Assembly: GCA_030917725.1 (NCBI GenBank)
Contig: JAUPUE010000034.1
Location: 1-40,150, forward strand
DNA length: 40,150 nucleotides
Direction: 5' to 3'
DNA from: Patescibacteria group bacterium
GTDB lineage: Bacteria > Patescibacteriota > Minisyncoccia > Phycocordibacterales > EsbW-18
Part shown: positions 21,995 through 40,150 of the stretch, piece after piece
Position numbering within the stretch: the first letter of the stretch is position 1
Layout of the letters: each line of letters begins with the position of its first letter
Notes under the pieces: model-generated
The model's database searches: none
What the model was told of the DNA's origin: nothing
The model's input: only the letters and a program-made list of their open reading frames with translations
Made by a program: the position numbers and the translations under genes

Positions 21995-22252
21995 CTATTT
22001 TAGCGGTATCACCGGAACCAGCCTTTTACGAGCAAAGGCAATGCCGGAGCCAGTTTTAAGATATTTTTCAAATCGAATTGCGATTTGTTCGTCGGTGAAA
22101 GCGGAATACCAAACAAGGTGGTAGGGGATCCTCCCTTTTGTTGGAGGACTCATCCCTTCGTTGTGTTCATATAATCTTCTACGAAGATTGATGGTTGTTC
22201 CGGTGTAGTGTGATCCATCTCGTAAACTTTTTATGATGTAGACATAATGCAT
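21995..22252 (-). CDS. GIY-YIG nuclease family protein (small, URI-domain only)
   Basis: MHYVYIIKSLRDGSHYTGTTINLRRRLYEHN... shows the GIY/YIG and R..L..H motifs. TATGAT lies 6 nt upstream of the ATG. Confidence 0.8.
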   Translation of the reverse strand: MHYVYIIKSLRDGSHYTGTTINLRRRLYEHNEGMSPPTKGRIPYHLVWYSAFTDEQIAIRFEKYLKTGSGIAFARKRLVPVIPLK

Positions 22253-22290
22253 CGGTAGATCATACTTTTGTTAAAATGAAGTAAGGATAA

Positions 22291-38127: not shown

Positions 38128-38201
38128 GCGCGTGTAGCTCAGCTGGTTAGAGCACGTCACTGATAATGACGAGGTCATAGGTTCGAATCCTATCACGCGC
38201 A
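38128..38201 (+). tRNA. tRNA-Ile (anticodon GAU)
   Basis: GCGCGTG-TA-GCTC-AGCTGGTTA-GAGC-A-CGTCA-CTGATAA-TGACG-AGGTC-ATAGG-TTCGAAT-CCTAT-CACGCGC-A. TTGAGA-N17-TATAGT upstream. Confidence 0.9.
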
Positions 38202-38221
38202 CTTTAGTTAATCTTTATTTT

Positions 38222-38731
38222 ATGAAGAAAATCATATTCGCTCTCGGTATCGTCCTCATTATTCTGGGCGCTTGGTTCTTTATGCGGCCTAAGGAGACAG
38301 TCACCCAAGACAACCTTGGCCCTAACCCTGTCTCTGCAAAAGAAACCAAAGTCGGGGATCGAGTCGGAGCGTTTGAGGTTTCAGAGATGCAGGTAGGCCC
38401 TACATCTATCACAGCAACATTTGTTGGCACAGCTACAGTCAACGTTGTTTGTTCATACGGTGATATGTTTGGGTATGTTTGTACGCCTGATGACGAGTCG
38501 GCAAAACAAGCGATTCCAAGATTTACAGAACTTGCAGATATTGGAAGCCAAAAATCTTTCTCTGTTATTGGTGAAGGTACTCCATTTGATTCTTTTAAAA
38601 AGAACTTCGAGATCGCCTCAGGTGCTAATGGGTCATCAGTTCCTCTGCGCATAACAATCACCGATTATGTGACTCGTTCCGGAGATACTACCATTATGTC
38701 CCGCGCAAGATTGGTGGAGGTGGTTGAATAG
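38222..38731 (+). CDS. membrane-anchored or secreted hypothetical protein
   Basis: MKKIIFALGIVLIILGAWFF signal anchor. 169 aa. No SD. Confidence 0.6.
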   Translation: MKKIIFALGIVLIILGAWFFMRPKETVTQDNLGPNPVSAKETKVGDRVGAFEVSEMQVGPTSITATFVGTATVNVVCSYGDMFGYVCTPDDESAKQAIPRFTELADIGSQKSFSVIGEGTPFDSFKKNFEIASGANGSSVPLRITITDYVTRSGDTTIMSRARLVEVVE

Positions 38732-38758
38732 CGCTTGTTGATTTTTTATTTAAAAGAT

Positions 38759-38782
38759 CAGCTGCACCCGGGGGTGCAGCTG
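38759..38782. terminator. bidirectional terminator hairpin
   Basis: cagctgcacc-cggg-ggtgcagctg between convergent genes. Confidence 0.7.
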
Positions 38783-38809
38783 GGACTTCGCGCGATACTG
38801 TGCGGAAGC

Positions 38810-39577
38810 TTACTTGGTCGCGAGGACCTGATAGAAGGCCCTGTATCCGATTGACCCCGATGCGTTGCAGGCGATAAGTACATCCTGGGTCATGAGCTGG
38901 TGGAACACGCGCGTCGTCACGAAGCCTTCCTCCTTAAGCTGTTTGGGGAACAGAGAGGCCGGATGGTACCACACGGTTGAATCGAAGATGTTGCCCTCCG
39001 AATCAACGTAGCGTTCTGCGAACCGCTGACTCTGCGTCATCGGTGCGGTCTCCATCGCCTCATACTGCACCCAGGATGCCTGACCCGTTCGTGCCGGACT
39101 GTCCGCCTGAAACAGATCGGGGTGCATTATGGAGACGATCAGGCGACCCCCATACTTGAGTACCTGGTAGGCTTCTCGAAAGAAGCTCTGGCACTCTTCT
39201 GGGGAGTCATGGATGAGGACCGCGATGCAGGCGATGCGGTCGAACGACTCAGACGGGTACGGCAACTCCTTGGTGATGTCGGCTTCATCATAGATGATGC
39301 CGAGGGGCTCGAGCGTCTCGTGTTCGCGGGCGCGGGAGAGCATCGTGGGGCTGCGATCACAACCCAACACTACCGCTCCGTGGTCGCGAACCAGTCTTCG
39401 GGCGATAAAACCCGAACCGCATCCAGCGTCGAGAACGACTTCGCCGGGTTGCGCGTCGAGAATCTTCAGCGAAGGCAGGCGACCGAGGTGGTCGCCAACA
39501 ACGGTGAGACGGTCGCCTTTACCCGTCCACATCACTGCAGAACTGGATTCATAAGGCAGGGTTTCGTCGGGATTCAT
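38810..39577 (-). CDS. class I SAM-dependent methyltransferase (GC-rich, SD-led)
   Basis: VLDAGCGSGFIARRL motif I. AAAGGA lies 8 nt before the ATG at 39577 (longer ORF runs to 39610). TTGACT-N16-TAAAGT upstream on the minus strand. Confidence 0.75.
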   Translation of the reverse strand: MNPDETLPYESSSAVMWTGKGDRLTVVGDHLGRLPSLKILDAQPGEVVLDAGCGSGFIARRLVRDHGAVVLGCDRSPTMLSRAREHETLEPLGIIYDEADITKELPYPSESFDRIACIAVLIHDSPEECQSFFREAYQVLKYGGRLIVSIMHPDLFQADSPARTGQASWVQYEAMETAPMTQSQRFAERYVDSEGNIFDSTVWYHPASLFPKQLKEEGFVTTRVFHQLMTQDVLIACNASGSIGYRAFYQVLATK

Positions 39578-39750
39578 GTGTTCCATCCTTTCAAGGTTGT
39601 GGCGGTCCACGGGTACTTTACATCACTTTTCAATATAGTCAACGTACGTTTCTCTCTTTGAAATGGTACGCGCACAGAAGTCGATTGTTCGATATACTCA
39701 CCAAACGGGCACGTGGCGGAACTGGACTTATAACTTTTCCGAGGCTAAGT

Positions 39751-39832
39751 GAGCGCGTGGCGGAACTGGTATACGCGTACGTCTCAGAAGCGTATGGAGC
39801 AATCCTTGGGAGTTCGAGTCTCCCCGCGCTCA
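39751..39832 (+). tRNA. tRNA-Leu (anticodon CAG), class II with long variable arm
   Basis: GAGCGCG-TG-GCG-GAACTGGTATA-CGC-G-TACGT-CTCAGAA-GCGTA-TGGAGCAATCCTT-GGGAG-TTCGAGT-CTCCC-CGCGCTC-A. Confidence 0.9.
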
Positions 39833-39875
39833 CTTAGCCTCGGATGGCGTACGTCTCAGACCTGTTCGAGTCCAT

Positions 39876-39904
39876 GCCTTGCCGAAGCTTTAGCGAAGGC
39901 AGGT
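39876..39904 (+). repeat. dispersed stem-loop repeat, copy 7 (inside the T-arm of the disrupted tRNA)
   Basis: gccttgc-cgaagctttagcgaa-ggcaggt. Confidence 0.7.
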
Positions 39905-39932
39905 CCCCGTGCCCACAGCCCTTATCACCAGT

Positions 39933-40150
39933 ATGTCTTTCGAAAAATCCTCAGAAGAATCAAAAAATGAAACGGCAGGGGTGACCCGCCGAGACTTTTT
40001 GAAAGGGGCCGCTGCTCTTGTTGGATCGGCAATGCTTGGACCCGAGATTGTGAGTGCTGATTCTAATAAAGAAACTGAATCTCTTAACGAGGGCGAACCG
40101 GGACCTGAGTACATGCGCGGAATGCAAGAATTGCATGAAAAAGCAAAGAC
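39933..40150 (+). CDS. hypothetical exported protein with Tat-like signal, 3'-truncated at the window edge
   Basis: Open frame to the window end: MSFEKSSEESKNETAGVTRRDFLKGAAALVGSAML. It has a twin-arginine motif and an MxFE N-terminus like 5417, 5923 and 25328. Confidence 0.5.
   Translation, partial: MSFEKSSEESKNETAGVTRRDFLKGAAALVGSAMLGPEIVSADSNKETESLNEGEPGPEYMRGMQELHEKAK

Follow-up and report, generated by a model that had tools for sequence, protein, structure and literature searches.

Results

A tRNA-Leu(CAG) gene nested in the remains of another

We analyzed a stretch of 40,150 nucleotides (the window) from a Patescibacteria group bacterium (contig JAUPUE010000034.1 of assembly GCA_030917725.1), in which an intact tRNA-Leu(CAG) gene lies between the pieces of a broken tRNA-Leu(CAG) gene. 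We refer to this arrangement as a nest and to the broken gene as the shell. The window is contig C34 of a metagenome-assembled genome (MAG) of 0.6 Mb, with 63 contigs and 43 tRNAs; the genomes of its relatives span 0.5–0.9 Mb and are of the type seen in the Patescibacteria, or candidate phyla radiation (CPR). Every element that the initial annotation had placed at the locus is present at its coordinates (Table 1).

To call tRNAs, we used ARAGORN and the Rfam model RF00005. The inner gene was the one intact call at the locus (39751–39832 or 39833), with 52.6 bits as compared to the gathering score of 29. It has the features of a class II tRNA, including a variable region of 13 nt (TGGAGCAATCCTT), a 7-bp acceptor stem that is fully paired, and the discriminator A73, which plays a role in leucine identity. 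Among the 43 tRNAs of the MAG, it is the only tRNA-Leu(CAG).

The inner gene is flanked by a perfect inverted repeat, which we call the clamp. The initial annotation had given its length as 12 nt and the resulting helix as about 19 bp. The repeat is perfect, as described, but its length is 13 nt (including the pair between T(-1) and A73), and the clamp and the acceptor stem together give 20 uninterrupted perfect base pairs. In the predicted RNA fold (-96.8 kcal/mol, z = -3.8), this 20-bp helix is present in both the minimum free energy structure and the centroid structure, and the outer acceptor halves also pair. Across the other 42 tRNAs of this genome and about 45 tRNAs at the relatives' loci (about 88 in total), pairing of the flanks never exceeds 6 bp. 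We found no source for the spacer that precedes the clamp; it has a single 14-nt match elsewhere in the window, which is the level expected by chance.

Table 1. Features of the nested tRNA-Leu(CAG) locus, in window coordinates.
Feature	Position	Strand	Description
-10-like box, TATACT	39693..39698	+	located 8 nt upstream of where the outer gene starts; presumed promoter for the entire unit
Outer piece a, GGGCACGTGGCGGAACTGG	39707..39725	+	tRNA positions 1–19: acceptor 5' strand, positions 8–9, D-stem 5' strand, start of D-loop
Spacer of 12 nt, ACTTATAACTTT	39726..39737	+	from outer piece a to the 5' arm; from sequence
Clamp 5' arm, TCCGAGGCTAAGT	39738..39750	+	perfect complement of 39832–39844; unique in the genome
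Inner intact tRNA-Leu(CAG)	39751..39832	+	ARAGORN and Rfam RF00005; acceptor GAGCGCG/CGCGCTC; A73 at 39832; no encoded CCA
Clamp 3' arm, ACTTAGCCTCGGA	39832..39844	+	first A is the discriminator
Outer piece b, GCGTACGTCTCAGA	39847..39860	+	tRNA positions 25–38: D-stem 3' strand, anticodon stem 5' strand, six of seven anticodon-loop bases
CCTG filler	39861..39864	+	stands for 24 nt of the ancestral gene; from comparison with the simple allele
Outer piece c1, TTCGAGTC	39865..39872	+	T-loop TTCGAGT and first base of the T-stem 3' strand
31-nt hairpin repeat	39873..39903	+	in the dead T-stem; loop GAAGCTTTAGCGAA, stem CCTTGCC/GGCAGG
Outer piece c2, TCCCCGTGCCCA	39904..39915	+	remaining T-stem 3' strand, acceptor 3' strand CGTGCCC, discriminator A; same as in the simple allele

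A simple allele coexists with the nested allele

We read the alleles present in natural populations from Logan contigs of public metagenomes (runs denoted X1, X2, and so on). A simple allele, with a single tRNA-Leu(CAG) between the window's own flanks, is found in the same runs as the nested form. For example, in run X1 (record 2), an 85-nt contig connects 39711 straight to 39756. Other contigs of the simple allele follow the window to 39725 and then read TATACGCGTA..., or run from ...GGAGTTCGAGTC into 39904, or match 39797–39833 with two acceptor letters changed and then continue with AGCCCTTATCACCAGTA. Run X11 contains the simple form only. The nested junctions are present with no differences in X1, X2, X3, X6, X8, and X10, which represent at least five studies. 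The contigs that span them cover 39668–39785 (X6), 39578–39728 (X8), 39668–39750 (X2), 39692–39786 (X10), and 39797–39933 (X1). The locus is polymorphic in nature, and the simple and nested alleles coexist in the same populations.

Because identical nested junctions were recovered in this many studies, the nest is real. The locus does lie just 235 nt or so from the end of the contig, where an artefact of assembly or amplification might arise. But the same junction-spanning contigs occur in independent freshwater and wastewater runs from different years, and the words shared between the inner and outer genes are 13–14 nt long, which is too short to mislead an assembler with k=31. We consider an artefact practically impossible.

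Three edits convert the window's sequence into exactly that of the simple allele: replace 39726–39846 (a 121-nt cassette in the D-loop) by TATAC, replace the CCTG filler by the 24 nt AGCGTATGGAGCAATCCTTGGGAG (anticodon stem 3' strand, variable arm, and T-stem 5' strand), and delete the 31-nt hairpin repeat. As originally proposed, then, the intact gene sits at the position of the outer D-loop, where it takes the place of the residues TATAC. There is no target-site duplication at the junctions of the cassette. The 31-nt hairpin belongs to a dispersed family whose 11–17 copies in the genome share a conserved loop and have stems that covary; the simple allele has no copy of it.

Of the 82 positions of the simple allele, 53 are retained in the outer pieces, in the same order and with no mismatches. 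Piece a matches the simple allele exactly and carries the acceptor strand that is typical of the genus, GGGCACG. Its resemblance to the 5' end of the inner tRNA is real, with 17 rather than 16 of 19 positions identical. Piece b is identical to the inner anticodon arm at all 14 positions, as reported, and so is the simple allele. The outer acceptor halves, GGGCACG and CGTGCCC, are indeed complementary. In local alignments, the similarity of the outer pieces scored above all of 2,000 shuffles, which rules out that it is no better than chance. The inner tRNA matches the simple allele exactly from position 8 to position 76 and differs from it only at positions 2, 5, 77, and 80. These four differences amount to two compensated changes of acceptor pairs (G2-C to A2-U and A5-U to G5-C), and both changed pairs fall inside the perfect 20-bp helix.

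The outer shell is the remnant of a dead tRNA gene and not a split gene. The initial annotation stated that removing the 31-nt insertion restores the layout of the T-arm and acceptor. Removal does give TTCGAGT-CTCCC-CGTGCCC-A, but it does not recover a tRNA in the shell, where the replacement of 24 nt by CCTG is a third lesion that had not been accounted for. Because the anticodon stem 3' strand, the variable arm, and the T-stem 5' strand went with those 24 nt, the shell cannot be repaired by removing its inserts, and ARAGORN found no tRNA in three edited versions of the shell without inserts, even with introns allowed. If the outer gene were nevertheless functional, its maturation would require that the inner tRNA and the hairpin be excised and the outer pieces ligated. 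The pairing of the outer acceptor halves in the predicted fold fits such a split or intron-like gene; its missing body does not, nor does the absence of a bulge-helix-bulge motif from the clamp, which is an uninterrupted helix. The shells of other strains also hold additional hairpins, as expected for a neutral remnant. We think it extremely unlikely that the outer gene functions in this way.

The outer gene is the ancestral resident gene

We compared the locus to five genomes from the same genus (G002, G005, G006, G011, and G013). Each of them has one plain tRNA-Leu(CAG), with the acceptor GGGCACG/CGTGCCC, so a simple tandem pair of tRNA-Leu genes is not the arrangement in the relatives. In four of the five genomes, the plain gene adjoins tRNA-Ile(GAT). 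Upstream of the plain gene is a TACTAT box, at a distance comparable to that of the window's TATACT from outer piece a, and the ortholog from G006 is 96% identical over 27 nt to the outer 3' end and its downstream flank. The outer gene is therefore the tRNA-Leu(CAG) that resided ancestrally in this lineage: it is an ortholog of the one such gene in each same-genus genome and is allelic to the simple form in the populations. The initial annotation was correct about the nesting, but the broken outer gene that it called a paralog is the ancestral gene itself.

Variant nested alleles share the clamp and the inner acceptor

Further variants of the nested allele are found in runs X14, X16, X24, and X25. 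The variant in X24 and X25 has the same arms and inner acceptor, along with four single-nucleotide differences, one of which turns an arm pair into G.T; it has tRNA-Ile directly upstream and a different sequence past 39854. In X14, a further 31-nt hairpin lies between 39711 and 39712. X10 and X14 have another insert after 39857, and X16 diverges after 39856. Across strains, the shell accumulates small hairpins. Because the arms and the inner acceptor are common to all of the variants, the nested allele arose once, and it is now carried by several haplotypes, with and without a 1,473-bp indel (38195–39667). For the right side of the variant alleles, a 30-nt loose end is absent from 20 relatives, and look-ups of exact matches to the neighboring proteins returned one 1.2-kb contig or nothing.

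We also considered whether the outer piece and the inner gene evolve in concert, given that X24 and X25 share C>T changes at 39722 and 39766. We rejected this, as every combination of the two bases is found (X14 and X16 have T and C at these positions) and the simple alleles carry either base.

The insert between 39711 and 39712 (in the outer acceptor strand, in X14) is TCCGTCTCCGCCGAGGCTTCGACGGGACGGG, and the insert between 39857 and 39858 (past the outer anticodon) begins with CCGCCGACGCTCTTCGAGCTCTGGCGGGCA... The former has CCGAGGCT in common with the clamp 5' arm. Counting the window's own 31-nt copy, there are three small inserts within about 200 nt of shell, versus 17 copies of the family in 600 kb. 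The 1,473-bp segment encodes a membrane-anchored open reading frame (ORF) of 169 amino acids on the + strand and an ORF of 266 amino acids that resembles S-adenosylmethionine-dependent methyltransferases on the - strand. It is missing from a coexisting variant in runs X1–X4 and is flanked by two direct copies of the 8-nt sequence ACGCGCAC, with which tRNA-Ile(GAT) ends at its 3' side.

Clamped and nested tRNA genes recur across Patescibacteria

To survey other genomes, we built a covariance model, R1, on 43 tRNAs to which we had added synthetic flanks (random sequences that pair over 12 bp). The window's gene scores 72.2 bits with R1, versus 43–48 bits for plain tRNA-Leu(CAG) genes. Ten candidates were scored per genome and class II tRNAs fall under the cutoff, so the counts are lower bounds. 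In the order, there were at least 98 matches of at least 74.6 bits in at least 82 of 401 genomes; in a sample from across the phylum, at least 33 of 401 genomes had matches. We fetched 42 of the loci; in 33 of them, 12 or more of the 14 flank positions are paired. In 25 of the 42, the flanks form perfect runs of 10–17 bp that always abut the acceptor stem and pair the discriminator (or an encoded ACCA). By the definition that these loci suggest (a perfect inverted repeat of at least 10 bp that abuts the acceptor stem and pairs the discriminator), the window's 13-bp clamp belongs to this class. The sequences of the arms are unrelated between the clamped loci.

Clamped tRNAs often have pieces of the same tRNA beside them. 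Neighboring intact tRNAs share conserved motifs, so we masked other tRNAs before counting fragments. Such pieces lie on one side of 19 of 34 clamped tRNAs and on both sides of 10 of 34. Among unclamped tRNAs, none of 123 has pieces of itself on both sides (0 of 38 neighbors and 0 of 85 background tRNAs). In the window, positions 1–19 lie upstream, positions 25–38 onward lie downstream, and the break is in the D-loop. Similar nests are found at L042 (Ile, 1–18 / 26–75), L044 (Ile, 1–25, 33–49 / 51–75), L032 (Lys, 1–41 / 57–74), L038 (Val, 7–30 / 37–64), L063 (Lys, 2–36 / 59–75), L039, and L051. Break points in these nests are located in the D-loop, the anticodon loop, or the junction of the variable and T regions, and extra hairpins are frequent in the shells. 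In most of the surveyed nests (for example, L032, L042, L044, and L063), the inner tRNA is identical to the outer pieces, including the acceptor strands, while the inner and outer acceptor stems differ at L038, L039, and L051. The nest in the window exemplifies a recurrent process that affects many tRNA genes across Patescibacteria. In full-text searches of the literature, whose coverage is incomplete, we found no published account of tRNA genes in CPR bacteria that are clamped or nested. The 31-nt hairpin family is not tied to nests elsewhere, as we found just one copy of its loop motif in 124 kb of surveyed loci.

At L042 and L044, the shells around the clamped tRNA-Ile(GAT) are layered: beyond the first set of tRNA pieces lies another, and even a third. 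In successive layers, the same position of the anticodon-stem 5' strand is taken by related hairpins. This layering suggests repeated duplication of segments that were already broken.

Predicted expression of the inner tRNA

The sole obvious promoter had been noted upstream of the outer 5' fragment, and the TATACT there is indeed the only conserved -10 box. A generic scan for sigma-70 promoters made no call at TATACT (39693) because there is no match to a -35 box. Since the promoter element lies upstream of the shell, the inner tRNA would be transcribed with a leader of about 45 nt. We propose that the inner gene is the working copy and is read from the old promoter as a precursor with this leader. 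The leader and the trailer would pair as the 20-bp helix that is continuous with the acceptor stem, and this would insulate the tRNA from the pieces of the shell. Bacterial RNase P is reported to be inhibited when the leader pairs with the 3' end (PMC9433436). The gene for RNase III is present in this genome and in all 14 relatives that we searched, and the organism's own 16S rRNA uses a 25-nt processing stalk. On these three grounds, we infer that RNase P and 3' trimming probably cannot act until the clamp helix has been opened, most likely by RNase III.

Origin of the nested allele

Overall, the nested locus is very probably a derived allele in which the single tRNA-Leu(CAG) gene has been replaced (a "replacement" allele). 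The resident gene was split in its D-loop by the 121-nt segment, which holds a complete copy of the same tRNA between 13-nt inverted repeats, and the shell afterwards lost 24 nt and gained the 31-nt hairpin repeat. As to the source of the segment, we consider in-place copying with template switching more likely than a mobile cassette, because the inner and outer pieces are identical in most of the surveyed nests. Specifically, the resident gene may have been copied in place, with the arms and the two changes of acceptor pairs written by intrastrand template switching; we give this route about an even chance. Template switching can write perfect stems and several compensatory changes at once, according to PMC8794818. 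Because one event can write both, it would account for the flawless clamp together with the two changed acceptor pairs.

Several points weigh against the overall reading. That the left and right junctions are linked on one molecule is inferred from overlaps of short Logan contigs. With the MAG at 86% completeness, a second tRNA-Leu(CAG) is conceivable. We did not see the precursor or its processing sites in RNA: the one clear metatranscriptome covers just the conserved tRNA body, and more generally, the contigs from runs labeled as RNA were indistinguishable from DNA or contained only the conserved tRNA body that is common to other organisms. Two compensated acceptor changes in a gene that is otherwise identical are an awkward fit to simple in-place copying. 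No source was found for the sequence of the arms and the spacer. Also, tRNA-Leu(CAG) genes with the 5' strand GAGCGCG are natural in other CPR lineages, which makes a foreign origin of the cassette possible.

If the cassette is foreign, it could be a mobile replacement unit: a tRNA between inverted repeats, with no genes, that comes from another lineage, enters the loop of a cognate tRNA gene, kills it, substitutes for it, and spreads by biased conversion. This would explain why the inner acceptor differs from the resident's despite the same tRNA body, with a similar 5' strand native to other CPR MAGs, and why the acceptor stems are also unlike at L038, L039, and L051. It would also fit a nested allele of single origin that is found on several haplotypes, with and without the 1,473-bp insert, and break points that lie in loops (the D-loop, the anticodon loop, and the variable/T junction). 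The same tRNA body occurs, identical, in unrelated metagenome contigs with other acceptors (GGGCACG, GCGGACG, GGGCGCG, and GGTCACG). Our search for a donor was not decisive: three CPR MAGs have the 5' strand GAGCGCG, but with the 3' strand CGTGCTC (G.U at pair 5) and no arms. The initial suggestion that a mobile cassette with these flanks might occur elsewhere was not borne out. The arms, as the pattern CCGAGGCTAAGT-N-ACTTAGCCTCGG, have no second copy in the MAG and no matches in 400 genomes of the order or in IMG/VR, and the inner 5' end also had no matches in IMG/VR. The unit does not qualify as a terminal-inverted-repeat transposon or a miniature inverted-repeat transposable element, as its arms are single-copy, are unrelated to the other clamped arms (so that the loci have no terminal repeat in common), and are not bordered by a target-site duplication. 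There is no recombinase gene at the locus either. Finally, the identity of inner and outer pieces, acceptor strands included, in most nests suits local copying better. We therefore regard a mobile cassette as a tentative alternative that is less probable than in-place copying. A broader idea, which we hold to be about as doubtful, is a dedicated, gene-less system of tRNA turnover in Patescibacteria, in which hairpin-bounded copies would be written into the loop of the cognate gene, perhaps by unknown machinery that places T-loop elements of about 100 nt and 31-nt hairpins at tRNA sequences; the cassette would then kill the resident, replace it, and spread by biased conversion. If so, the coexisting simple and nested alleles would be a drive polymorphism in progress.

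Two other histories are far less probable. Three head-to-tail copies might have decayed, with copy 1 losing its 3' part and copy 3 its 5' part. There are loci that resemble such decay: at L002 (G022:C100, about 1340–1500, from another family), two degenerate copies of the 5' half of tRNA-Leu(CAG), of about 65–75 nt each, stand in tandem directly upstream of the intact gene, and at L031, the broken copy is wholly downstream. But independent decay does not predict that the outer pieces would be exactly complementary parts of one gene (positions 1–19, positions 25–38, and the T-loop to the end) and free of mismatches. Also, the repeats at the junctions are inverted rather than direct, and the simple allele with identical flanks provides a starting state of one gene. 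Such a triplication is improbable. The other history is that the fragments are scars of tyrosine integrases, that is, duplicates of the attL/attR type that remain after loss of an element. tRNA genes are frequent targets in this organism: the 1,473-bp indel has an 8-nt repeat at the 3' end of tRNA-Ile, and 5 of the 43 tRNAs carry small inserts with 18–19-nt repeats of the tRNA's 3' end. The outer pieces, however, are complementary parts of one gene instead of duplicates that bound an insert; the insert is just 121 nt of tRNA and inverted repeats, with no integrase-like ORF adjoining the locus; and the break falls in the D-loop, which to our knowledge is not a classical sublocation for integrases. 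We see little chance that this explanation is correct.

Other elements associated with tRNA genes

Inserts of 90–160 nt follow 5 of the MAG's 43 tRNA genes: Arg-CCG, Arg-TCG, Gly-TCC, Val-GAC, and Arg-GCG (loci L068–L072, at C15:4806–5020, C49:5900–6096 on the - strand, C49:9805–10010, C55:1690–1879 on the - strand, and C59:11768–12020). These inserts start in the T-loop and are bounded by an 18–19-nt direct repeat of the tRNA's own sequence from the T-loop to the 3' end. Each carries the T-arm in inverted orientation as well as the conserved core GGCCGGA...GAGGCGGGGTCG...CGTGAC. Related inserts are found at tRNA-Leu(CAG) in G011 (L009) and in a JGI contig (L014). Other strains have one at tRNA-Ile, as seen from the loose end CGAATTAGTGACTCGTGAC+CGAATCCTATC in X6, X10, and X11.

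The genome also has small ORFs that resemble GIY-YIG proteins (C61:2300–2557, C59:2631–2912, C59:10661–10978, 21998–22270 in the window, and C16:11572–11859). Four of these five lie at most about 110 nt from tRNA-Ser(GGA), tRNA-His, tRNA-Ser(TGA), or the transfer-messenger RNA (tmRNA), on the same strand. At L034, an ORF of this kind is directly upstream of a clamped tRNA-Lys. We rejected a link between GIY-YIG genes and clamped tRNAs, as just 3 of the 42 loci have one within 1.5 kb.

On contig C61, tRNA-Ser(GCT) (493–580, + strand) and tRNA-Ser(GGA) (2226–2311, - strand) are inverted with respect to each other, are about 1.7 kb apart, and both have the acceptor GGAGACG. Their 3' flanks are identical (aaattttcgaaaagg).

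Discussion

Few bacterial genes are as conserved, or as seldom rearranged, as those for tRNAs. Here, an essential single-copy tRNA gene was destroyed and replaced inside its own coding sequence, and our survey suggests that the same kind of replacement occurs at many tRNA genes of a whole bacterial superphylum. Public metagenomes contain the simple allele from before the event side by side with several later states, so the event can be resolved to single bases. If there is a specific mechanism, it would be a new structure-directed rearrangement of DNA or a selfish element without genes, and these bacteria would produce mature tRNAs from precursors with both ends held within a 20-bp helix. Annotation of tRNAs, calling of pseudogenes, and strain typing in CPR bacteria should allow for nests.

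Tyrosine-integrase elements leave tRNA fragments or pseudo-tRNAs (attL/attR, at tRNA and tmRNA genes) beside an intact copy. As in these att systems, partial tRNA copies flank the window's insert, an intact copy keeps the function, and tRNA genes are hotspots. Unlike in them, the insert consists of a tRNA and inverted repeats, the break is in the D-loop, the halves are complementary, and there is no recombinase. The clamp is also reminiscent of pairing between leader and trailer in tRNA precursors and of the stalks of rRNA that RNase III processes, in which a long helix forms from the flanks of a structured RNA, and this organism has both a 25-nt stalk at its 16S rRNA and RNase III. However, bacterial tRNAs normally lack such stalks, there are none at the other 42 tRNAs of this genome, and processing of the clamp by RNase III is our proposal. 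The split, permuted, and multi-intron tRNAs of archaea and red algae similarly show non-canonical interruptions, with complementary flanks that form long helices. But those tRNAs are functional and need a bulge-helix-bulge motif and a splicing endonuclease, whereas the interrupted gene in the window is incomplete and non-functional.

In the template-switch hairpins described in PMC8794818, one event gives a perfect stem with compensatory changes, as in our 20-bp helix with its two acceptor pairs. Such events could explain the clamp but not the duplication and nesting of a whole tRNA, and our data are consistent with them. The nearest published analogue that we found is the tRNA-Thr gene of Caldiarchaeum. 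According to that report (PMC3293823), the population is heterogeneous at this gene, and the inserted element is predicted to encode a recombinase and is accompanied by introns. As at our locus, disrupted and less disrupted forms coexist there, and a tRNA fragment was displaced by inserted DNA over a short time. The Caldiarchaeum gene is archaeal, however, and ours is a bacterial case in which the gene-less insert is itself the replacement tRNA and the gene around it is a dead shell.

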